A DNA stretch of 10,932 bases from a virus. Lineage: Duplodnaviria; Heunggongvirae; Uroviricota; Caudoviricetes. Under the pieces are notes generated by a model. The model was not told where the DNA came from. It worked only from the letters and a program-made list of their open reading frames with translations, and ran no database searches. Shown here one piece after another: positions 1-10,932 of the stretch (its first letter is position 1; every line of letters begins with the position of its first letter). The DNA lies in the IMG/VR virus record IMGVR_UViG_2671180814_000008. One strand, 5' to 3'. A program made the translations under genes and the position numbers.

Positions 1-366
1 CAATGCGGCCTTTTGTGATTCGGCCTGTTGTTGCTGTTCGTCAGCCGTATAAATCCGTTTAACCACAGCTCCGTCCTTAAACATCCACTTACCGGAATCA
101 TCAGCACGACGATTAGCTGTAATATCAGGAACCTCAACGACGCTATAACCTTCAGGGTTAAGCGTGGAGGCATCTTTGGTGATGGCGACAATAATATTAT
201 TTGCATCGTAAACAATCTTTATTGTGTCTGGCTGAAAGTTCTTCACTTCCTCATACCAGTTTTTTCCGTCCTCAGAGTAAAGCCAGATGACTCCGTGCTT
301 CTTTGTTAACTCATACTGCTCCACTGTTTTAGCATTACCTGCTTTTATGTTCTTTAAGTGCATCAT
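1..366 (-). CDS. tfa: Tail fibre assembly protein (Tfa chaperone family), N-terminal part; 3' end runs off the window start
   Basis: Minus-strand translation from ATG at 366-364 reads [57 protein letters not shown] with no stop before position 1. Clearly paralogous to the complete tfa at 1630-2163 ([42 protein letters not shown]). Start lies 1 nt after the TAA of the upstream tail-fibre cassette (TAA-T-ATG). Missing from the ORF track because it has no in-window stop. Confidence 0.8.
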
Positions 367-367
367 A

Positions 368-1396
368 TTAAATACTCGCCACATTATACCAAGTGCCATT
401 TATATACTTTTGCACTGGCCTGTAATGAACGCCTGCAATATTATCGGCAGAGTTTTTTCCGGTATCCTGTACGTTAATCCCCGTCAGTACATAGCCTGAC
501 GGGCACTGAAAATTCCATGTTTGCCAGTTGTTCACTCCATAATATTGCTGTGAACCAAGTCGAACATCTTTCACATATCTGGAATCAAAATTGCCATAGT
601 TGCCGGGAATAACTTGCGAGCCGCAAAGCCAGTTCCCGTTATTATCCATGTACGCCTGACCATCGGTGCCATTGGCTGTCCTTGAGTTATTAATCATGTA
701 GATGCCAAATTGCTTATTTCCCAGACCGCCAATCATAAATTTGCGGTCGGCATGGTCCTGACGGAGCAAAGCCTGAGCACCATCAGTGGATACCGCATTA
801 CGTCCCAAAATAACATTCTGGTCACGCATATGAATCCACATGCCGGTACTACTGTTAATTGCAAAACGGTTTGCAAATATATCCCCTGTAACATCAAGAC
901 CATGCCCCATGCTTATCCGGCCAGTTCTGAGATTAAGCGTAAAGGGGCGTAGTGGCCCTATATTACCATTTTCCCCTTCATTCTCTCGTGTAGGGATGAT
1001 ATGCAGGCATTCTTCAGAACGACGAAAAATGGCACCAAAAGATGAATTAAATATCCTCAGTGCATTGACTGTCGATATTTTCACTTCACTGCTGAAAAGG
1101 GCTTCAACAAGAACAGACAAAGCATTCCATTTAAGATTCATCAGGTCTTTAGGCCGGGTGCCAATGATGCGGTGTCTCCATTTGAAATATTCATTGCCGT
1201 TGTTGCCTGTTTCAAACCACATGTAGGAATCGGTGTCTGCATCCGAATTATTTTTAAACCCAATCTTTGCCCAGTCAGTATTTCGAATCCAGGCAAGGAT
1301 TGAGTCGTTTTCAAAAGTAAGTCCACCGGACAACGTATCGCCATTTTTTTGCACGGCGTTACCAGCCTTGTTTACCGTTTCCTGTAAACCGAGGTT
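368..1396 (-). CDS. Phage tail fibre C-terminal variable (receptor-binding) cassette 1, silent: no own N-terminal constant part or RBS
   Basis: ORF track gives 368-1354 from a GTG. The same frame stays open upstream to 1396 and is closed only by a TAA inside the crossover site (1397-1399). Reads [12 protein letters not shown]..., the junction peptide expected of a Mu S-type fibre crossing a gix site. Glycine/asparagine-rich fibre-like composition; C-terminal motifs [15 protein letters not shown] and INGTWYNV are shared with cassette 2. Followed immediately by a tfa gene. Confidence 0.7.
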
Positions 1397-1404
1397 TTAG
1401 ATAA
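1379..1404. other. gix/hix-like 26-bp invertase crossover site, copy 1 (TTCCTGTAAACCGAGGTTTTAGATAA)
   Basis: Two 12-bp imperfect inverted half-sites around a central GA. One mismatch from the phage Mu gixL sequence as I recall it (TTCCTGTAAACCGAGGTTTTGGATAA). Sits exactly at the 5' end of tail-fibre cassette 1. Confidence 0.7.
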
Positions 1405-1576
1405 TGGCCGTTTCCGGCCTGCATGGCATGATTTGCGCTTTTGGACGGGAGATTCAGCGTGCTGATTGGCTATGTAAGGGTATCAACAAATGACCAGAAT
1501 ACAGACCTGCAACGAAACGCTCTTGTTTGTGCAGGATGTGAACAAATATTTGAAGATAAATTAAGCGGAACAAGGA
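1385..1576 (+). repeat. About 190-bp direct repeat, copy 1 (crossover site right part + invertase leader + first ~39 invertase codons)
   Basis: 1385-1568 matches 3081-3264 with 2 mismatches (1409 C vs G, 1415 C vs T) by manual alignment. Copy 1 continues the invertase reading frame (LSGTR) to about 1576 before diverging. Confidence 0.85.
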
Positions 1577-1608
1577 NGAATGGCCACAAAAGCCTGAATA
1601 AAAATTAA
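1459..1608 (+). pseudogene. Truncated serine DNA invertase N-terminal fragment (about 39 invertase codons then unrelated tail, stop at 1606-1608)
   Basis: GTG at 1459 preceded by GGGAG. Encodes [39 protein letters not shown], identical to the start of the invertase at 3155, then X-NGHKSLNKN-stop. Contains the ambiguous base at 1577. Confidence 0.55.
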
Positions 1609-1626
1609 GGCCCGATAGCGGGCCTT
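1597..1626 (-). terminator. Putative rho-independent terminator downstream of tfa (1630-2163)
   Basis: Perfect 8-bp stem AAGGCCCG (1607-1614) / CGGGCCTT (1619-1626) with 4-nt loop. On the minus strand it is followed by AATTTTTATT, starting 3 nt after the tfa stop codon. Confidence 0.5.
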
Positions 1627-1629
1627 CTC

Positions 1630-2163
1630 TCATTCTGGTTGTTCGGGAAACGTTACTGGCAGGCTGGAGGTGTCTGTGGATTCAACCTTCTGCGCATAGA
1701 GCATCCACTCGGTTAATTTTTGTTTATTCTCATCGGAAATGATGCCCAGCTGTAGCTGAGAGTCCCACAGCTGGGTTTTATCCCTGACGAGCTGCAGCAG
1801 GCTCTGCTTTTCATTTTCCGCTTGTTGCCTTTGCTCTTCCTCGGTATAAGTTCGCTTTATCACCGCACCATCTTTGAACATCCAGTTGCCCGAAATATCA
1901 GCCCGGCGATTTGCTGTAATATCAGGCAACTCAACGACACTTAAACCTTCTGGATTAATTGCTGATACATCCTTGTCTATAGCAATAATTATTCCCTCAA
2001 CTGTGTAAGCCAGTTTTATTGTATCCTCCTGAAAGTTTTTTAATTCCTCATGCCAATTTTTTCCATCTTCGGACCATAACCAGATAACATCAAAATTCTT
2101 TGTTAGCTGGTATTGTTCAACGGTTTTTGGATTACCTGCGACAATGTTTTTTAAATGCTGCAT
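1630..2163 (-). CDS. tfa: Tail fibre assembly protein (Tfa chaperone family), complete, 177 aa
   Basis: ORF-track protein [37 protein letters not shown]...[28 protein letters not shown]. The C-terminal W..Y..V.....S.P...P pattern is typical of Caudovirales tail-fibre chaperones. ATG at 2163 lies 2 nt after the TAA ending the cassette 2 reading frame. Confidence 0.85.
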
Positions 2164-2165
2164 GA

Positions 2166-2315
2166 TTATACCTGCGATACGTTATACCATGTTCCGTTAA
2201 TTAACTTTTGTATTGGTCTGAATACTGCCGGATCATCACCATCGACTTCACCGATAATACCAAGCCCCGTGATTACATGGCCTGATTTTTCATACATCAC
2301 GCCTTTCTTCATGGT
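2166..2315 (-). pseudogene. Detached C-terminal 49 codons of tail fibre cassette 2, downstream of an in-frame amber stop
   Basis: Same frame as 2316-3092. After TAG (2318-2316) the frame reads [52 protein letters not shown], which aligns with the C-terminus of cassette 1 (..[21 protein letters not shown]). Confidence 0.45.
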
Positions 2316-3092
2316 CTAAACAACTCGTGTGCCAAGTCTGACATCTCTCACATAGCGGGAATCAAAGTTACCGTAATCCGAGGGATTAACACGTCCCGTA
2401 ATATTTATGGTTTTATTACTTTGAATGCTTCCGGAGACAAAGCGCATAACATGGACGTTATTAGCATAAACATCCAGATTACCATCGCCTTTTTGTTTAA
2501 AGCCCGTGTCATTATCACCCAATACAATCGAATTACCGCCAAGAGCACTGGATGTTCCGATACCCAGTGCACCATTCAGTTGACCACCAGATAACGGCAG
2601 TGCACCAACATCTCCTGCTGAAGGTTTTCTGGTGGTGTAAAATTCGGACCAGTCGGCTTCAAAACCATAACCATCACGGGCTGAACGATAAAAAATACCG
2701 CCATTTTTATAATTAATCCGAAACTGAGCTGCAGGACAACTTCCTTCTCCCATATAAAAATGAATAATTAACGTTGATGCACCACTAATAGTTGCGTTAT
2801 AGGCTCCGCTACTCCAGTTCCATCCAACTGCTTTATCATTCGCAACGGTGCTTCCTGTTTTCCCTAAGGCAAACGCACCAACATGACTTGCTTTTAATGT
2901 GATATCGGAGGAACCATCAAAAGCCACATTGCTTATTTTCCTGGCAGTTTTTAATTTTGCAGCTGTAGAAGCATTGCCGGATAGTTCACCAGAAAGGCCA
3001 CCGCTGAATGTTTGTCGATTAGTCCAGGTATTCGCTGTACTGAGTAACGGTATTTTCTCCCCGCTTGTGCCGAGTTCTCGTAAACCGAGGTT
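2316..3092 (-). CDS. Phage tail fibre C-terminal variable cassette 2, silent; truncated by an in-frame TAG
   Basis: ORF track 2316-2927 (GTG start). The frame is open upstream to 3092 and is closed by a TAA inside the crossover site (3093-3095). Reads NLGLRELGTSGEKIPLLSTANTWTNRQTFSGG...NVAFDGSSDITL..., ending ..[23 protein letters not shown]. Confidence 0.7.
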   Translation of the reverse strand, partial: NLGLRELGTSGEKIPLLSTANTWTNRQTFSGGLSGELSGNASTAAKLKTARKISNVAFDGSSDITLKASHVGAFALGKTGSTVANDKAVGWNWSSGAYNATISGASTLIIHFYMGEGSCPAAQFRINYKNGGIFYRSARDGYGFEADWSEFYTTRKPSAGDVGALPLSGGQLNGALGIGTSSALGGNSIVLGDNDTGFKQKGDGNLDVYANNVHVMRFVSGSIQSNKTINITGRVNPSDYGNFDSRYVRDVRLGTRVV

Positions 3093-3100
3093 TTAGATAA
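3075..3100. other. gix/hix-like 26-bp invertase crossover site, copy 2 (TTCTCGTAAACCGAGGTTTTAGATAA), adjacent to the invertase gene
   Basis: Same architecture as copy 1. The cassette-proximal half differs (TTCTCG vs TTCCTG); the invertase-proximal half is identical. Lies 55 bp upstream of the invertase start. Confidence 0.75.
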
Positions 3101-3264
3101 TGGCGGTTTCTGGCCTGCATGGCATGATTTGCGCTTTTGGACGGGAGATTCAGCGTGCTGATTGGCTATGTAAGGGTATCAACAAATGACCAGAATACAG
3201 ACCTGCAACGAAACGCTCTTGTTTGTGCAGGATGTGAACAAATATTTGAAGATAAATTAAGCGG
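3081..3264 (+). repeat. About 190-bp direct repeat, copy 2 (ends at the assembly gap)
   Basis: Near-identical to 1385-1568. The run of N begins at 3265, exactly where the sequenced part of this copy stops. Confidence 0.85.
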
Positions 3265-3873
3265 NNNNNNNNNNNNNNNNNNNNNNNNNNNNNNNNNNNN
3301 NNNNNNNNNNNNNNNNNNNNNNNNNNNNNNNNNNNNNNNNNNNNNNNNNNNNNNNNNNNNNNNNNNNNNNNNNNNNNNNNNNNNNNNNNNNNNNNNNNNN
3401 NNNNNNNNNNNNNNNNNNNNNNNNNNNNNNNNNNNNNNNNNNNAAAAGGTGACACGCTGGTTGTCTGGAAACTGGATCGCCTCGGGCGAAGCATGAAACA
3501 TCTGATTTCTCTCGTCGGGGAACTACGGGAGCGAGGAATTAATTTTCGCAGTCTGACCGACAGCATAGATACATCTTCTCCAATGGGGCGTTTTTTCTTC
3601 CACGTGATGGGTGCCCTGGCTGAAATGGAACGTGAATTAATTGTTGAACGTACACTGGCCGGACTGGCGGCAGCACGCGCACGGGGGCGCACAGGCGGAC
3701 GTCGACCGAAGCTGACAAAAGAACAGCATGAGCAAATAGCAAGGCTGATCAAAAACGGGCACGACAGAAAACAACTGGCAATAATTTACGGCATTGGTAT
3801 ATCGACGATTTATCGTTACCACCCCGCAGGAGAATCAATCGGAACAATAGAGAAGAGTCAGGAAACAAAATAA
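3155..3873 (+). CDS. Site-specific serine DNA invertase (Gin/Pin/Hin/Cin family), interrupted by an assembly gap
   Basis: GTG at 3155 with GGGAG 7 nt upstream. N-terminus [37 protein letters not shown] contains the family's catalytic-serine motif (YVRVS). After the gap: [70 protein letters not shown]...[19 protein letters not shown], including a Hin-like C-terminal helix-turn-helix; stop TAA 3871-3873. The gap falls where about 10-15 codons are expected to be missing. Confidence 0.9.
3265..3443. other. Assembly gap (179 N)
   Basis: Run of N in the sequence, inside the invertase coding region. Confidence 1.
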
Positions 3874-3900
3874 CCGCTAATCTGACCATTAGCGGTTTTT
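3874..3900. terminator. Bidirectional rho-independent terminator between convergent invertase and gpU-like genes
   Basis: Perfect 8-bp stem CCGCTAAT (3874-3881) / ATTAGCGG (3888-3895) with loop CTGACC, followed by TTTTT on the plus strand and by a T-rich run (TTATTTTGTTT) on the minus strand. Lies between the invertase stop (3873) and the gpU stop (3909). Confidence 0.55.
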
Positions 3901-3908
3901 GTGTTAAA

Positions 3909-4403
3909 TCAGAACAACCCTTTAACTGAACTGGCCGCGCTGTTAAGGGATGATGTTACCTTATCTTTGAAGCCGGACAGCATATCGCTGAACGATGAGG
4001 ATTGCAGGCGCTCCCGCAAATCCTCATCACAGCGTTCAAGAGTCAGTGAAAATTCTATCTTTTTCGCCTTACCGTAGCGATCAAACTCGGAGCGGGTCGT
4101 ATTCGTTTCGGTCAGGACATACATGCCGTAAATCTGCCCGACGCCATCAATCAGAGGCCAGGGTCGTCCTGTATACGCCTGCGTGGTCAGCAGCGACAGC
4201 GACACTTCGCCACCTGTAATTTCAGGATAAAGCACACCAGAAAGAACGATGCGCTCATCACCTGCACCGATATACTGCCAGCTTGCCGAACGGTTAACGC
4301 GTTCATTTTTCACATGCCGCCAGCTTTTGTTTTGCTGTAACTGCTGATGCGGCAATGTACGCAGCTCAAAAACAAACATGCCGTAGATCATCATCATGGC
4401 CAT
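3909..4403 (-). CDS. U: P2 gpU-like tail protein, 164 aa
   Basis: ORF-track protein MAMMMIYGMFVFELRTLPHQQLQQNKSWRH...VLYPEITGG. Immediately downstream of the tape-measure gene, as in P2-type tail operons. ATG at 4403 follows the T stop (4410-4412) with GAGGAG overlapping that stop. Confidence 0.75.
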   Translation of the reverse strand: MAMMMIYGMFVFELRTLPHQQLQQNKSWRHVKNERVNRSASWQYIGAGDERIVLSGVLYPEITGGEVSLSLLTTQAYTGRPWPLIDGVGQIYGMYVLTETNTTRSEFDRYGKAKKIEFSLTLERCDEDLRERLQSSSFSDMLSGFKDKVTSSLNSAASSVKGLF

Positions 4404-4409
4404 GACTCC

Positions 4410-7253
4410 TCAATCTTTATCGTAAAAACTGCCACGCCCGGCACGGGCGCGCCGTTCCATTTCTGCCCTGACCATTTCACCGACCAGTTTCGCCAGTTCG
4501 CGGGGATTCTGCGTAACAACGTTATGCAGATGAACATGAATTTCACCACCAAATCCGGAGGCAACAGGCTCCCGGTTACGGGAAGTTACAGGAACTGATG
4601 CCACTGGAGAGCGTATGGCCTCCGCCACCGGGCGGGAGCTGGCCGCAACAACAGGGACCAGCGCCGGAGGCAGCGGAGCCGGGACCACGGGTGTGATATT
4701 AATTGCGGGGGCAGGCTTACTGACCTGCGCAATCTTCCGCTCCTGCCACTCCCCACGAACAGCAAGTGCGCGGGGCAGGTTCTTAAAGACAATATCGCCG
4801 GGGCCAATGCGTTTTTTCGTCTCATCAACCAGCTTACCTGTGTTATCAGCAATTTTGCTGAGTCTGCGTAGCGTCCCGGTATTGCTGTCTGTGAGCGGTT
4901 TGTTGTCTTTGGGTTTATCACCTCCGGTGCCATTGCCATTTTCCACAGGCTTCGGCGGATTGATTTTCGCCAGGTCCCCCTGAAGCAAGGCAACCTTGTC
5001 CTGAAGAATGGCCGCACGCTGTGCGTCTTCGATTTTCTTGCGCGCCCTTTCCGCTTCATCCGGAAGGACGCCAAGTTTTTCAAGTATCCACGCCAGCGTA
5101 TCCAGTAGCATTTTTGCAGGTGTCAGAACAAGTTGTAACGCACCGCCAAGAACGTTACCGAATATCTCGCCAGCACTGGCACATTTATCCAGCGTTTCCT
5201 TGCTGGACTCCATCGGTGACAGCAGCGATTTAAACCAGTTAAAGACCTGAATAATCCCATCGCGCACGACATCAAAAACAGGGCCAAACCGTTCAAAGGT
5301 TTCGCGCAACGGGGTCAGCCTTTCCATAATCCCGCTGAACACCCCGGCAAAAAATGCCCTGATGGGATCCCAGTATTTCCAGATAAGAACGGCAGCTCCG
5401 GCAAGCGCAGCCACGATAAGACTAACCGGACTGAACAGCGCCCCGATAGCGCCACCAAGTAAAGAAACGGAACCCGTCACCATTCCCCATAATGCAGGCA
5501 GAACCCTGACAACATTCATTGATTCGGTCAGGAGAGAAAAACCGAGACGCAACGTAGCCAGCTTCCCGTGAAGCACCCCAATAACCAGAGACAACGAACC
5601 AACCGTTGCTGTTGTCGCCAGCAGTGCGCCTCCCGCTATCAGTAACTGGCGCGTCAGTGCCGGGTGGGCCTGCGCCAGCGCCGTCACCTTTGAGACAACC
5701 CGCGTGAGCCACTGCGTGACAGAACGCAGCGGACCGTCAACCAGATCACTGATGCGAATACGCAGACCTTCCCATGCACTGCCGAGTGATTTCAGGTTGC
5801 CATCAAGGTTATTGGCCATAACCTTTGCCGTGCGTTCTGCCTCACCGCGCGCGCCTTCAAGTTCTTTTCTCAGTTTGGCTAAGAAGCCGTCACCTGCCGC
5901 ATCAACGAGGCCCATAAATGATGTGAAAGCCTCTTCTCCGGCAATGTCCTTAAAGAACGATACCCGGTCAACCTCCCCGTATTTGCGGGTGGCTTTATAG
6001 AGATCGGCCAGCACATTCTCCATCGGGCGCATTTTGCCTTTGGCGTCAGCAACTGACACCCCCAGCTCTTTCAGTGCTTCTGCCGCTGCCTTTGGCGGTG
6101 ATGACAGATTGGCCAGGCTTTTACGCAACGCTGTACCTGCATCACTCCCCCTGATACCCATCTTCGCCAGCACGCCCGCCATCGCTGCGGCCTGCTCCAG
6201 CGATATTCCCAGCTTACCCGCCACCGGACCTGCATATTTCATGGTTTCGCCCAGTGCGCGAAGGTCAGTGTTGGTACGGGTAAACGCTGCGGTAAGTGTG
6301 TCACCGACCCGGTCCATCTGGTCAGCAGAGAGGCCGAACTGCGTCAGGATATTGGAACCAATATCCGCCGTCTCGCCGAGGTCCATACCGCCAGCCGTTG
6401 CCATGCTCAGCACGCCGGGAAGCGCAGCCTGAATGGCCTGCGGTGTGAAACCAGCCATTGCAAGAAATGCCTGTCCACTGGCGGCATCGCCTGCGGTGAA
6501 CTGCGTTTCAGAGCCAAGTTTTAACGCCTGCTCACGCAGCGCCTTAAACTGCGGGCTGTTTTTATCGATTCGCGTCAGTGCCTGAACACGGGACATCTCT
6601 TTCCCGAACCCGATAGCGGGCTGCAAAAAACGCCCGGCAGCATAGCCGCCCGCTGCCGCCGCACCTGTTGCCAGCGCACCACCTGTTTTCAGTTTTCCCG
6701 CTGTTTCCTGCGCGCGTGAATACCGCTCACGCGCCTGCGTTACACGCGCAAGCGCCCGCCGTTCGCGTTCAAGCTGGTTGTTGTATTGTCCGGTGCGTCT
6801 GATGGCCTGCTGGATGGTGTTATCGCTGCCTGTCAGGGAAATGCCGTGGCGTTTCAGCTCTCCGCCAAGTTCCCGCATTTTCTGAATTTCCCGTGTGCGC
6901 GATTCATTCAGGCGTTCAAGCCGGGTGCTTAACTGCTGCATCAGCTTTTGTTGTTTTTCGCTGAGCACTGTACCCGTGCGTTGTAACTGATTAAGGGCGT
7001 TAAGCTGGCGTCGTGCTTTCACGATGCCCGCATCCGCTTTACTGACAGCGTCACGGGCGCGCTCAAATGAACGCGCCTGACGCTCGAGATTTTTGATCGC
7101 CCCCTGCGTTCGCTGGATGGAGTCACCAAACTGCCCCATCAGGCGGCGGGCGTTTTCGGCAGGCCGGGTCAGCCTGTCAACGGCGCTGAAAGCGACCCGG
7201 ATATCAAGAGTCTTCATTGTCTGCATTCCCGCTGCGAAGTGCCGCCCGCTCAC
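4410..7253 (-). CDS. T: Phage tail tape measure protein (P2 gpT-like)
   Basis: 947-aa ORF. N-terminal half is rich in coiled-coil-like Q/R/E/L repeats, followed by long hydrophobic/glycine-rich segments (..LLIAGGALLATTATVGSLSLVIGVL..) and a proline-rich C-terminal region. Sits between E/E' and U. True start may be an internal ATG (7226 or 7217, MQTMKTL / MKTLDIRVAF) rather than 7253. Confidence 0.85.
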   Translation of the reverse strand: MSGRHFAAGMQTMKTLDIRVAFSAVDRLTRPAENARRLMGQFGDSIQRTQGAIKNLERQARSFERARDAVSKADAGIVKARRQLNALNQLQRTGTVLSEKQQKLMQQLSTRLERLNESRTREIQKMRELGGELKRHGISLTGSDNTIQQAIRRTGQYNNQLERERRALARVTQARERYSRAQETAGKLKTGGALATGAAAAGGYAAGRFLQPAIGFGKEMSRVQALTRIDKNSPQFKALREQALKLGSETQFTAGDAASGQAFLAMAGFTPQAIQAALPGVLSMATAGGMDLGETADIGSNILTQFGLSADQMDRVGDTLTAAFTRTNTDLRALGETMKYAGPVAGKLGISLEQAAAMAGVLAKMGIRGSDAGTALRKSLANLSSPPKAAAEALKELGVSVADAKGKMRPMENVLADLYKATRKYGEVDRVSFFKDIAGEEAFTSFMGLVDAAGDGFLAKLRKELEGARGEAERTAKVMANNLDGNLKSLGSAWEGLRIRISDLVDGPLRSVTQWLTRVVSKVTALAQAHPALTRQLLIAGGALLATTATVGSLSLVIGVLHGKLATLRLGFSLLTESMNVVRVLPALWGMVTGSVSLLGGAIGALFSPVSLIVAALAGAAVLIWKYWDPIRAFFAGVFSGIMERLTPLRETFERFGPVFDVVRDGIIQVFNWFKSLLSPMESSKETLDKCASAGEIFGNVLGGALQLVLTPAKMLLDTLAWILEKLGVLPDEAERARKKIEDAQRAAILQDKVALLQGDLAKINPPKPVENGNGTGGDKPKDNKPLTDSNTGTLRRLSKIADNTGKLVDETKKRIGPGDIVFKNLPRALAVRGEWQERKIAQVSKPAPAINITPVVPAPLPPALVPVVAASSRPVAEAIRSPVASVPVTSRNREPVASGFGGEIHVHLHNVVTQNPRELAKLVGEMVRAEMERRARAGRGSFYDKD

Positions 7254-7733
7254 GCCAGCTAACCACTTCGCCGGGCGTCATCATGAAGATTTCGGCGGGC
7301 GACCAGTTAAAAATGGCGGCAATATCCGCCACAAAGTCTTCTATGTGCTCAAAGCACACAACCGTGATCAGGCTTCCGTCGCCTGTTCGTTCTTCTCGCC
7401 AGAGTCCGCACCGCTCAAAAAATTTACGGCAACCACACATAACTGAATAAAGTCACGGGATGCCATTTTTTTGATCGTCACTTCATCCAGTCGCGGTGAT
7501 GTCACGCGTGACAGCAGCGTAAACATGGATTCCGCTTTCAAATTCAGCACATCAGACAGCGACAAATCTCGCAGAGATCCAGCCTGCTCAATAGCCCCGG
7601 TGATCTCCACATACGTGATTTTTTCGCCGCCTCGCTCAATTGGTTGGGTAAGTTTTACGCCACGCTCACTGGTTTCTTTCACAGTGTCAGCAACGACCGT
7701 GTTTTCGGTATCGATGTTTTTCGTCTCTTTCAT
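7204..7733 (-). CDS. E': Tail assembly chaperone E+E' fusion (P2 gpE' analogue), made by a -1 ribosomal frameshift at 7416-7422
   Basis: The E frame reads ..VVAVNFL..; the -1 frame after TTTTTTG continues FERCGLWREERTGDGSLITVVCFEHIEDF...MMTPGEVVSWRERAALRSGNADNEDS and stops at 7204-7206, overlapping the start of T. This matches the conserved E/E' (lambda G/GT-like) arrangement upstream of tape-measure genes. Confidence 0.6.
7368..7733 (-). CDS. E: Tail assembly chaperone (P2 gpE-like), 121 aa
   Basis: ORF-track protein MKETKNIDTENTVVADTVKE...; ATG at 7733 preceded by AAGGAG with a 7-nt spacer. Lies between the tube and tape-measure genes. Confidence 0.8.
   Translation of the reverse strand: MKETKNIDTENTVVADTVKETSERGVKLTQPIERGGEKITYVEITGAIEQAGSLRDLSLSDVLNLKAESMFTLLSRVTSPRLDEVTIKKMASRDFIQLCVVAVNFLSGADSGEKNEQATEA
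7416..7422 (-). other. Slippery heptamer T-TTT-TTG for the -1 programmed frameshift (E to E')
   Basis: Plus strand CAAAAAA at 7416-7422 is minus-strand TTTTTTG, in the E frame as AAT-TTT-TTG, 15 codons before the E stop. The -1 frame downstream is open for 72 codons. Confidence 0.6.
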
Positions 7734-7787
7734 CAGGAAACTCCTTTCAGTCAGAGGCGACGCACTGCGCCGCCTGCATATTACTTA

Positions 7788-8300
7788 TCAGCCAAGCCCG
7801 AGCGCGGAACGGATGCGATCGGGCACAATGTCCCTGCCGTCCTTCCGGTAAATGAAGTTCAGCAGGTCAATCTCCCACAACGGGCGATCGTTAACACTCA
7901 GCTTGTAGTAGGTGTTTTTAATGGCGTAAGTGTGTGATGTGGCTTCGCCCTGTTTGGCTTCCCCCATATCAATTTCCGTCACACGTCCGCGCATTTCGAC
8001 TTCATACAGGTCGCTTTCAGCGTCGGTGTAGTATTCACCCGCAAAACGCAGCAGCGTACCGTCAATCGTGCCGCCATACTTAAGGAACAGCTCACGAACT
8101 GCGCCCCCCATGACAAAGCTCGCATCAAGCGCGGAGTCATCCAGGCCGAGATCAATACTTACCGCTCCCATCATGCCACCACCCCGGTAGCTGTCGGTTT
8201 TGCGCGTCAGCTTAGGCAGAGTGACGGACGTCACCTTACCCACTTCGTTTTCACCATCCACAAACAGCGTAAAAAAGCGAAGATGTTTTGGTACAGCCAT
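7788..8300 (-). CDS. FII: Phage tail tube protein (P2 FII-like), 170 aa
   Basis: ORF-track protein MAVPKHLRFFTLFVDGENEVGKVTSVTLPKLTRKTDSYRGGGM..., recognised as P2 FII-type. Its ATG overlaps the sheath stop by 1 nt (ATGA); GGGAGG lies 7 nt upstream. Confidence 0.9.
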   Translation of the reverse strand: MAVPKHLRFFTLFVDGENEVGKVTSVTLPKLTRKTDSYRGGGMMGAVSIDLGLDDSALDASFVMGGAVRELFLKYGGTIDGTLLRFAGEYYTDAESDLYEVEMRGRVTEIDMGEAKQGEATSHTYAIKNTYYKLSVNDRPLWEIDLLNFIYRKDGRDIVPDRIRSALGLG

Positions 8301-9484
8301 CAGGCACCTCCCAGCACCGCAAATGCGGGACCAAAGAATTCATCAGTAAACGACTGGTAAAGCTCCATGTCTTCCAGCGGGGGAACAGGCGTATATTTGT
8401 AGCGAATACGCACGCGCCCCTGACGTAAATTCGTGGTGCCGTTATCCACCACGTCATACCAGCACGACGCCCCAATCAGTTTCCCGGCAGTAACCAGTGA
8501 ATCCAGTTTTGCCCTGATGGCACCGATAACATCCTTCACGTTCGCAGGCGTCAGTGGACTGTCGATGGTTTCAAACTGCGCTTCCGCAATTGAATCAGCC
8601 AGCACCTGTGCGGTTCGGGTATACACCTCAAAGATGTAGGCGTTCGTTTCCGGTGTGCGGTTGCCCCAGAAGCGGAACCCGTTGCGACGAATAATGGTCG
8701 TGATTTCTTTGTTGTTGAGGCTGTTGGCATCACTGTCTTCGGCCTGCAACGACCAGAACACATGCCTGGACATCCCCAGCACATTTTTAACCGGAACGTT
8801 GGACAGCGATTTGTGCCAGCCCTGCTCATGGTCAATGTACGCACGAAGGCCGCACGCATAGGCAGGCGCGGGGAACGTTTCGTTTTTGCCACTTTTCGGG
8901 TTGTAGGCGATGAAGTCCGGCCATAAGAGCATCACCTCACGTTCGTTGAATTTCTGGCGGTAGGTAATTGCCTCAGCCATCGTGTTACAGTCATGACATG
9001 AGGCATACACAAACGCGCGCAGTTTACCCGCAATCACGCACAGGGATTTTGTCACCGCCTCCGTGTCCAGCTCCGGCGCGGCCAGAATACGCGGACGGTA
9101 TCCGATGCTTTCATCCTGCTCTGCAACAAGCAGCGCATACATCCCCGTATAGCTGCCGTCAGATTCAGAACCACCGATAACCAGTTGATCCTGCGTTTTT
9201 CCGTCTTCTTCTTTGTGTTCAGCCACGCGAACGACGATCACCTTTGTGCTCACCTGGTCTGCGATGGCCTTAAGCGCACGATAAAGCGTCCCCGTTGTTC
9301 CGCATTTTCCCAGCACGTCATTGACGCGGGGCAGCAGTGTGGGCTTGTTCAGCGGGAACAGCTCCGCGTCCGCATCATCCGCCGTTGCCACGATACCGAT
9401 AACGCTGGAATCAACATCGTTAATCGCTGTTACCAGGTCGGTATTTTCCGTAACACGGGCACCATGAAAACGAGTTTCACTCAT
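8300..9484 (-). CDS. FI: Phage contractile tail sheath protein (P2 FI-like), 394 aa
   Basis: ORF-track protein MSETRFHGARVTEN...FPLNKP...WPDF...EQGWHKSLSNV...GFRFWGNRT...YTPVPPLE, recognised as P2 FI-type sheath. AAGGGG lies 8 nt upstream of ATG 9484. Confidence 0.9.
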   Translation of the reverse strand: MSETRFHGARVTENTDLVTAINDVDSSVIGIVATADDADAELFPLNKPTLLPRVNDVLGKCGTTGTLYRALKAIADQVSTKVIVVRVAEHKEEDGKTQDQLVIGGSESDGSYTGMYALLVAEQDESIGYRPRILAAPELDTEAVTKSLCVIAGKLRAFVYASCHDCNTMAEAITYRQKFNEREVMLLWPDFIAYNPKSGKNETFPAPAYACGLRAYIDHEQGWHKSLSNVPVKNVLGMSRHVFWSLQAEDSDANSLNNKEITTIIRRNGFRFWGNRTPETNAYIFEVYTRTAQVLADSIAEAQFETIDSPLTPANVKDVIGAIRAKLDSLVTAGKLIGASCWYDVVDNGTTNLRQGRVRIRYKYTPVPPLEDMELYQSFTDEFFGPAFAVLGGA

Positions 9485-9641
9485 AGCTTCAACCCCTTGT
9501 ATCCGTTAAATGATTCGGCAACAATCATCACCCACCACGCGCGTAATCTCACCCCTGCGCCATTCTCCCGCCACGGCGACAACAAAAAGCAGTAACCCCC
9601 TCCGCACGCACATGCGACCATGCCACACAGGGAGGGAGCAG
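9485..9641. promoter_or_regulatory. Divergent intergenic region, presumed to hold promoters for the sheath operon (leftward) and the gpD-like gene (rightward)
   Basis: 157 bp non-coding between divergent starts at 9484 and 9642. No clear promoter motif identified. Confidence 0.3.
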
Positions 9642-10751
9642 ATGACCGACACCACCATGCAATTGCTCAGTCAGGGCACAGACCCCGTGAAAATGCCGGA
9701 TTTTGATATTCTCGCGGAGGGTAAAACGCTGTCAGGCGTGGCAGAGCGCCTGATGAGCCTGTCACTGACCGACAACCGGGGATTTGAGGCGGACCAGCTC
9801 ACCATCACGCTGGATGATGCGGATGGTCAGTTGCAGCTACCGCCACGGGGCGCGCGCCTGACGGTTCTCATTGGCTGGAAGGGAGAACCGCTGACAGAAA
9901 AAGGCACTTACATTGTTGATGAAATCGCTCACGAAGGACCGCCGGACAGGCTGACTGTTTCAGCCAGAAGCGCAGATTTTCGGGCTGAATTTAACGTTAA
10001 ACGTGAGGTGTCCTGGCATGATGTGACCGTTGAGCGTGTGGTATCCGCCATCGCTCATCGGTATGGTCTGAAACCGCAAATCAGCGAAATGCTGATGGAT
10101 ATCGAAATCGACCACGCCGACCAGACCGAAGAAAGCGACATGTCCTTCCTTACGCGCATGGCGGAAATGCTGGGCGCAATCACCACGGTAAAAAGCGGTA
10201 ATCTGTTATTCATCATGCCCGGTGGTGGCGTGAACGCACAGGGCCAGCCGTTGCCCTCGTTCGCCATCACACGCAGCAGCGGCGATCGCCATCAGTTCCG
10301 CATTGCTGACCGCGAAGCGTATACGGGGGTACGCGCTTACTGGCTTGATCTTAATTACGGGAAAAAGAAAAAAGTCAGCGTGAAACGCCGCAAACCGTCA
10401 AAACCAAAAAAGGAGAAAAGCAGCAGCCGGGAAGGCGACTATATGGAAGGTGCGGAAGGCAACGTGTTTGTGTTACGCAAAACTTATCAGAACGAGCAGG
10501 CAGCAAGACGTGCAGCGGCGGCAAAGTGGCAGCAGCTACAACGCGGAGCCGCATCATTCTCCATCACACTGGCGCATGGACGTGCAGAACTCTACCCCGA
10601 AATGCATGGCACGGTAACAGGATTTAAAAGCGAGATTGATAATCAGGACTGGATTATTGCAAAAGCCGAGCACACCATTGATAACAGCGGCTTTACCACG
10701 CAGCTTGAGCTTGAGGCAAAAATCCCGGAATGGATAGCAGAAACAGAGTGA
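9642..10751 (+). CDS. D: P2 gpD-like tail protein (phage late control D / Phage_GPD family), about 370 aa
   Basis: The ORF-track frame is open from 9510, but ATG 9642 is preferred because GGAGGGAG sits 3 nt upstream. Protein MTDTTMQLLSQGT...LSLTDNRGFEADQLTITLDDADGQLQLPPRGARLTVLIGWKG... with a central lysine-rich linker (KKKKVSVKRRKPSKPKKEK), as in gpD-type proteins. Confidence 0.75.
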   Translation: MTDTTMQLLSQGTDPVKMPDFDILAEGKTLSGVAERLMSLSLTDNRGFEADQLTITLDDADGQLQLPPRGARLTVLIGWKGEPLTEKGTYIVDEIAHEGPPDRLTVSARSADFRAEFNVKREVSWHDVTVERVVSAIAHRYGLKPQISEMLMDIEIDHADQTEESDMSFLTRMAEMLGAITTVKSGNLLFIMPGGGVNAQGQPLPSFAITRSSGDRHQFRIADREAYTGVRAYWLDLNYGKKKKVSVKRRKPSKPKKEKSSSREGDYMEGAEGNVFVLRKTYQNEQAARRAAAAKWQQLQRGAASFSITLAHGRAELYPEMHGTVTGFKSEIDNQDWIIAKAEHTIDNSGFTTQLELEAKIPEWIAETE

Positions 10752-10932
10752 GCAACTTAAATGTATTAACTCAGAACGGATCAACACACTCACAACATAG
10801 AGTCAATATAGCTGCTCGCTTTGTTCCAGCAAGGATGCCTATTTCTAAGGAAAAACAGAGCAGAAACATATGGTGTTTTCCTACCTGACATCAGGGGTGG
10901 TAGACTGGCCCCCTGAATCTCCAGACAACCAG

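Follow-up and report, generated by a model that had tools for sequence, protein, structure and literature searches.

The minus strand of a 10,932-nt sequence from a Caudoviricetes virus (IMG/VR record IMGVR_UViG_2671180814_000008; this whole stretch is referred to as the window) carries a tail-fibre cassette whose reading frame meets an amber codon and then stays open up to a tail-fibre assembly (tfa) gene, which raises the question of how the stop arose and what it does to the fibre. A sequence-only reading of the window took the TAG for an interruption of an ancestral longer ORF, and offered three origins for it: a nonsense mutation in a silent cassette, a sequencing error, or a natural split into two genes. 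The same reading compared the interrupted cassette (cassette 2) with a second one in the window (cassette 1).

Reading frame and gene context of cassette 2

The minus-strand TAG is written as 'cta' on the plus strand of the window. Translation of the minus strand from 3134 to 2166 keeps the frame open for 49 codons past this TAG, up to a TAA at 2166-2168, and bears out the position of the amber codon, its 49-codon in-frame continuation and the placing of the TAA 2 nt ahead of tfa2 (ATG at 2163-2161); a terminator-like hairpin is located downstream of tfa2 (1626-1607). The 2-nt spacer between TAA and tfa had been ascribed to both cassettes; it applies to cassette 2, whereas in cassette 1 (TAA at 368-370, tfa1 ATG at 366-364) the spacer is 1 nt. 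The likeness seen between the detached segment and the C-terminus of cassette 1 is confirmed: with the stop read as Q, the C-termini of the two cassettes are 45% identical over 82 aa (E=1e-18), in an alignment running across the stop position.

The part of cassette 2 that precedes the stop was called mechanically as an ORF of 203 aa with a GTG start at 2927, and this exact ORF is Q3Z104_SHISS of Shigella sonnei Ss046; the 48-aa ORF of the detached segment is named 'putative tail fiber protein (GpH)' in S. sonnei annotation. The variable part of the cassette matches Pfam gp37_C (E=6e-8, above the cut-off) and PDB 8ju3, a Mu S/S' chimera (E=5e-56), while PDB 5yvq (Mu S) was aligned across the stop (E=2e-15) to a shared ...INGTWYNV end. 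Cassette 2 is therefore homologous to characterised fibre C-termini (gp37_C, 8ju3, 5yvq) and is directly followed by a Caudo_TAP gene, as expected for this fibre family; its relatives are continuous through the conserved 14-residue end, whereas in cassette 2 the TAG cuts this motif off.

Table 1. Features of the window. Coordinates are those of the 10,932-nt window; L026 is AAUYFO010000041.1.
Feature	Coordinates	Strand	Evidence
True silent cassette of the P2/P88-like prophage	1-1576	minus	99.8% identical, contiguous in L026 7497-9072
tfa1 (partial)	1-366		
Sv1, 328 aa	368-1354		
Crossover site	1378-1403		
Invertase 5' end	1441-1576	plus	
Single 'n', read as scaffold join between P2/P88-like contig (1-1576) and lambdoid-remnant contig (1578-3264)	1577		L026 comparison
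tfa2, tail-fibre assembly (chaperone) gene, 177 aa	1630-2163	minus	Pfam Caudo_TAP, E=5e-34
C-terminal segment cut off by the stop: 49 codons and TAA (one Thr codon followed by the 48-aa ATG ORF at 2169-2312)	2166-2315	minus	Translation; carries the conserved 14-residue family end
Premature amber codon TAG, from CAG (Gln) via one C-to-T transition	2316-2318	minus	CAG in E. coli NCTC86 and phage L-413C; TAG in 16/16 S. sonnei-type loci fetched
Variable tail-fibre region (cassette) preceding the stop	2319-3092	minus	Translation; frame open from just within the crossover site
3-nt in-frame deletion in ACC repeat (YTTTRK to YTTRK) relative to NCTC86 and Mu S/S'	2623-2645	minus	In 16/16 TAG-bearing loci; absent in NCTC86
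26-bp Gin/Cin/Pin-type crossover site heading cassette 2 (ttctcgtaaaccgaggttttagataa)	3074-3099		Sequence; S. sonnei inversion break-points map to 25-bp overlap
5' part of serine invertase gene, lambdoid-remnant copy	3137-3264	plus	60-aa Resolvase fragment; gene cut to about 60 aa there
179-N scaffold gap; stands for about 40-48 nt up to 3444 in the intact prophage	3265-3443		L026 comparison
Rest of the P2/P88-like prophage: invertase 3' part (plus); gpU, tape measure, gpE, tube, sheath (minus); gpD (plus)	3444-10932	plus and minus	L026

The ancestral codon in intact relatives

A megablast search with the cassette retrieved six complete Escherichia coli genomes that cover 98% of the query and are 98.7-98.9% identical to it and, at 85%, P2-like phages including Yersinia phage L-413C. 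Strain NCTC86 (NZ_CP019778.1) carries the same lambdoid prophage as the one that holds cassette 2 in S. sonnei (see below), inserted at ompW at the same ompW/trpA site, with the same invertible segment and a likewise truncated recombinase (annotated as 'missing C-terminus'). It is 98.8% identical to the window over 1.5 kb (cassette plus tfa), but has CAG at the position of the stop, lacks the 3-nt deletion and possesses an intact cassette: its annotated tail-fibre CDS (WP_425350119.1) ends 2 nt before tfa, with the translation ...RLGTRVVQTMKKGVMYEK...NVSQV preceding the stop codon. The P2-like phage L-413C (NC_004745.1) is more distant, with 85% DNA identity over 1.17 kb of gpH/gpG (cassette plus tfa) and the same C-terminal sequence. 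Unlike cassette 2, its H gene is a single ORF of 913 aa, followed by gpG, which encodes the continuous, functional fibre of a plaque-forming phage having no inversion system.

In the DNA alignments the TAG of the window corresponds to CAG both in NCTC86 and in L-413C gpH, so that the nearest intact homologues carry a sense codon that differs from the stop by a single base. The comparison with homologous fibres that the sequence-only reading had proposed thus returns full-length relatives with a sense codon at this position, and its view of the TAG as an interruption stands: the closest intact relatives, and the ancestral gene with them, have one ORF that runs to a TAA 2 nt before tfa. With a 121-nt query centred on the stop, the stretch was found in 217 complete E. 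coli genomes, the best five having one mismatch, and none of these 217 genomes matched the query at 100%. Since NCTC86 and L-413C have CAG and none of the 217 E. coli genomes with the stretch fully matches the TAG version, the stop is derived, by a single C-to-T transition in a Gln codon.

A change from CAG to TAG is exactly what a Gln-inserting amber suppressor reverses. A leaky or suppressed stop, through such a tRNA or through read-through, would restore the ancestral residue and still allow the full-length fibre to be made, and nothing in the sequence forbids it. To our knowledge no amber suppressor tRNA has been described in S. sonnei, and the prophage is defective and carries other lesions, with nothing to suggest that selection maintains a working fibre, which makes production of a full-length fibre in this manner very improbable.

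Conservation across the stop and the 48-aa ORF

When a 123-aa query that includes the stop position was used to search for homologues, 78 clusters were obtained. Of these, 62 extend well past the stop position and none ends there; most of the matches are short or incomplete proteins (at most 216 aa), so the count of proteins ending at this point comes from a biased sample. This search did not list the truncated S. sonnei proteins, and the count was cross-checked by exact look-up and DNA comparison. At the stop position the aligned residue is Q in most cases, with K, Y, N and others in the rest. When 29 homologues were aligned, the best-conserved block of the C-terminal region was a 14-residue motif located in the detached piece; the invariant Q124 and W131, plus most of the nearly invariant columns, are all found downstream of the stop.

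These data bear on a natural two-gene organisation, in which the fibre would normally end ...TRVV and the 48-aa ORF would be a separate small gene, encoding for instance a tip or adaptor peptide. Gene callers do annotate the 48-aa ORF in many genomes, and its ATG, 3 nt after the stop, could permit termination-reinitiation. However, only the S. sonnei allele is split, while the 98.8%-identical E. coli allele, L-413C H and Mu S are continuous, and the prophage that hosts it is visibly decayed (truncated invertase, IS elements). No convincing Shine-Dalgarno-like sequence was found at a proper distance before the ATG, a Pfam search with the 48-aa peptide matched no family, and a scan for promoters and terminators gave nothing pointing to independent expression of this ORF. 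With no homologue cluster ending at the stop, the option of a natural split, with a separate small gene downstream, loses its ground and is most improbable; lacking a good ribosome-binding site, the 48-aa ORF is most likely not a functional gene. Re-initiation at the same ATG, with the 48-aa peptide complementing the truncated fibre in trans to form a two-piece tip, is equally hard to credit.

The TAG allele of Shigella sonnei

The interrupted form of the gene is widespread. In a public collection, 2201 blocks list the exact 48-aa ORF as a gene call, and ten places on complete or near-complete chromosomes all have the same context. The exact 48-aa and 203-aa products were each found on at least 1000 contigs named Shigella sonnei (including Ss046, 53G and 866), among them under the name 'putative bacteriophage tail protein [Shigella sonnei Ss046]' (Q3Z104_SHISS). 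The TAG-bearing chromosomes include those of S. sonnei 53G (HE616528.1; PMC8067512) and S. sonnei 866 (CP022672; PMC6128377). Each of the 16 TAG loci that were fetched also has the 3-nt in-frame deletion, which NCTC86 lacks; the TAG and the linked deletion together are the common, standard allele of S. sonnei, present in many independent assemblies including complete genomes. A scan of IMG/VR for the TAG-containing pattern returned six contigs, all of the S. sonnei type, the window itself not being among them.

Positions 1578-3104 of the window are base-for-base identical to S. sonnei 53G, and up to 3264 there are only two mismatches to this strain, both within the invertase/crossover repeat; over the whole of 1578-3264 the identity to the S. 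sonnei loci is 99.88%. The base call at 2316-2318 in the source assembly rests on this identity with other S. sonnei genomes. A sequencing or assembly error at the codon, with a true base giving CAG and an intact ORF in the source organism, could be suspected in a draft scaffold with an 'n', an N-run and mixed bases (at 3132, at 3234 and at the 3' end of the contig that forms 1-1576, all repeat ends of contigs), but can be practically dismissed, as the identical TAG allele occurs in complete genomes of several projects and on the contigs counted above, the cassette matches 53G at every base, and the mixed bases are confined to the shared repeat with none in the cassette. Of the three origins proposed earlier, it is the nonsense mutation that agrees both with the CAG of the relatives and with the inheritance of the allele across S. 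sonnei assemblies.

Predicted effect on the fibre tip

Lost through the stop are the last 50 residues, among them the most conserved motif of the fibre family. In the alignment with Mu S, query residues 365-440 correspond to Mu S residues 424-502, the stop falls at about residue 452 of 504, and the detached piece aligns to about 452-502, the tip of the fibre-chaperone complex 5yvq. An AlphaFold monomer model of an intact E. coli homologue (mean pLDDT 80, pTM 0.47) places strands 101-106, 116-127 and 130-133, as well as most of 86-90, past residue 88, which is equivalent to the stop. This model has a single significant fold match, to 5yvq ('Complex of Mu phage tail fiber and its chaperone'; probability 1.00), with a TM-score that is low (0.42), as expected for a lone chain set against one chain of that complex; the monomer model serves solely to tell which strands are lost.

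Since the stop lies upstream of the conserved block, of the tip aligned with Mu S and of these model strands, the truncated product should be without most of the tip domain. When the cassette is placed behind the fibre N-terminus, the resulting fibre would thus lack four to five beta-strands of the model, the equivalent of about residues 452-504 of Mu S. According to the summaries in PMC9608196 and PMC11915804 of the Mu fibre-Tfa structure (North et al. 2019), the fibre of Mu requires Tfa in order to trimerise and keeps it bound at its distal part (PMC9608196). The region of the Mu complex equivalent to the lost piece would form the tip where Tfa acts, and a truncated fibre would be expected not to trimerise, fold properly or bind its receptor. 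We infer a loss of function from the loss of the conserved motif, from homology and from the loss of most of the predicted tip strands.

Phage Mu has a closely comparable system. Its fibre S (gp49) and chaperone U (gp50) (PDB 5YVQ; S/S' 8JU3) share with cassette 2 a homologous fibre C-terminus with a Caudo_TAP gene directly after it, and both systems are borne on Gin-type invertible segments in which two cassettes converge. Unlike Mu, the ORF described here is cut about 50 residues early, belongs to a lambdoid remnant with an stf-type N-terminus (Pfam phage_tail_N), and has a truncated invertase of its own.

Home locus: a decayed lambdoid prophage with an invertible segment

In complete S. sonnei genomes, the locus of cassette 2 is a decayed lambdoid prophage beside trpA, in which gpJ, Lom and the N-terminus of an stf-type fibre are present. 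Two convergent cassette + tfa units lie in an invertible segment of 2,950 bp; after it come a 60-aa serine invertase stump and then a methyltransferase gene, and IS elements are inserted nearby. In these genomes the convergent cassettes are flanked by two inverted crossover sites, and both orientations of the segment occur, differing by its clean inversion between the 25-bp overlaps that bound it. Within the window itself, only the crossover site at 3074-3099 belongs to the lambdoid element; the site at 1378-1403 is in direct orientation to it and is part of another prophage.

The orientation of the segment decides whether the TAG cassette lies in the silent position or behind the fibre N-terminus. 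In 53G and several other genomes this cassette adjoins the invertase stump, and the partner cassette gives an intact fibre of 918 aa; in CP044151 and CP026802 it is joined to the fibre N-terminus, resulting in a truncated ORF of 875 aa. The description of cassette 2 as silent, made from the window, is accordingly right for the first group of strains and wrong for the second. Among the S. sonnei loci that were compared (segment at 5209-8158), one orientation was seen in L006 and L008 and the other in L009, L010 and L013. The assembly UGZB01000001.1 has both orientations near its two ends, with flanks that are 99.95-100% identical, which we infer to be an untrimmed circular overlap that caught a mixed culture.

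The organisation is that of the Gin/Cin/Pin/Min systems (Mu, P1, e14, p15B), with which it shares the 26-bp crossover sites, an invertase gene beside one of the sites, alternative fibre C-termini that each have their own tfa, and a segment found in both orientations. Unlike in those systems, the local invertase is a stump: the lambdoid remnant retains a 60-aa fragment only, in place of an intact serine invertase next to the segment. If the segment still switches, the enzyme would thus have to be supplied in trans, and the stump hints at the invertase of another prophage. Related invertases of the Gin/Cin/Pin-type family can act on each other's sites, and the intact invertase of a P2/P88-like prophage, described below, would be the obvious candidate, although we consider it very doubtful that this enzyme switches the lambdoid segment.

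The window as a probable scaffold of two prophages

The remainder of the window derives from this P2/P88-like (Xuanwuvirus-like) prophage, whose gene order is U, invertase, 328-aa fibre cassette and tfa (175). Positions 3444-10899 are 100% identical to positions 1-7456 of AAUYFO010000041.1 (L026), in which the blocks equivalent to the ends at 1576 and 3444 are 40 nt apart, the gap being invertase coding sequence; the 179-N gap as written breaks the invertase reading frame. It is this prophage that owns the full-length invertase of the window (3155-3873; 195 aa in L026), and its own expressed fibre is a different, intact protein of 656 aa. Because blocks 1-1576 and 3444-10932 are contiguous in L026 and block 1578-3264 lies exactly between the 'n' and the N-run, the most plausible reading of the window is a mis-scaffold in which two loci from a single S. 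sonnei genome were joined through a shared repeat. The two prophages have about 190-225 bp in common (crossover site and invertase 5' end; ~98% identical), present in the window in direct orientation at 1384-1576 and 3080-3264, and the last bases of the contig forming 1-1576 carry the variant of the other copy (SGTR versus SGTK); this repeat is the probable cause of the assembly tangle. A real recombinant of the two prophages in the source strain is a possible alternative to a mis-scaffold.

A pairing of cassettes 1 and 2 in one prophage has consequently to be abandoned, as block 1578-3264 comes from the degraded lambdoid prophage next to trpA. A single multi-cassette invertible locus comprising both was considered and rejected: the crossover sites of the window are in direct orientation, and in real genomes 1-1576 and 3444-10932 form one contiguous stretch.

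A chimera of the same kind was observed in another IMG/VR contig (IMGVR_UViG_2695420708_000013, L018), with single-N joins at 5233 and 10309; there, the TAG cassette and a P2-type gpH N-terminus are fused to the methyltransferase and invertase stump of the lambdoid remnant and to a P2/P88-like tail module. Prophages that are related to the P2/P88-like one and share its gpU (L021, L024, L025 and L027, at about 11190-14200) possess four to six short Collar-domain (PF07484) cassettes beside the invertase, in varying orders and orientations, which looks like a multi-cassette (shufflon- or Min-like) fibre switch rather than a simple two-state one. In two other loci, IS3-family elements were found in the P2/P88-like invertible segment (L020, 11248-12404 and 14208-15364; L022, 11248-11651), where they interrupt a tfa gene and the stretch from the invertase to the 328-aa cassette; these insertions indicate that the P2/P88-like prophage is decaying too in some genomes.

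Significance of the interrupted cassette

Taken together, the amber codon very probably goes back to an inherited change of CAG (Gln) to TAG, a nonsense mutation that hit one of two alternative C-terminal cassettes of the tail-fibre gene in a degraded S. sonnei lambdoid prophage located by trpA/ompW, and would be one of several marks of decay in this cryptic prophage. Judged by its sequence, cassette 2 of the window is a pseudogene of the Mu S / P2 H-type fibre family, ordinary and lineage-wide, and no intact member of it. Both of its fragments are already annotated as 'genes' in public S. sonnei genomes. To the sequence-only reading the present analysis adds the ancestral codon CAG, the exclusion of an error and of a natural split, and the two-cassette layout as a scaffolding artefact.

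For the annotation of S. sonnei genomes, this means that two 'tail protein' genes listed separately are the halves of one gene, and for draft assemblies and viral catalogues that shared invertase/crossover repeats make them fuse two prophages, as is also illustrated by L018. Where such cassettes are mined for host-range engineering, the CAG allele (NCTC86, L-413C) is to be advised, not the TAG allele. The S. sonnei lineage is rich in IS elements and pseudogenes, and in itself the finding is of small significance, representing one more pseudogene in a cryptic prophage of this organism; if switching in trans by the P2/P88-like invertase were true, one prophage would control the fibre choice of another.
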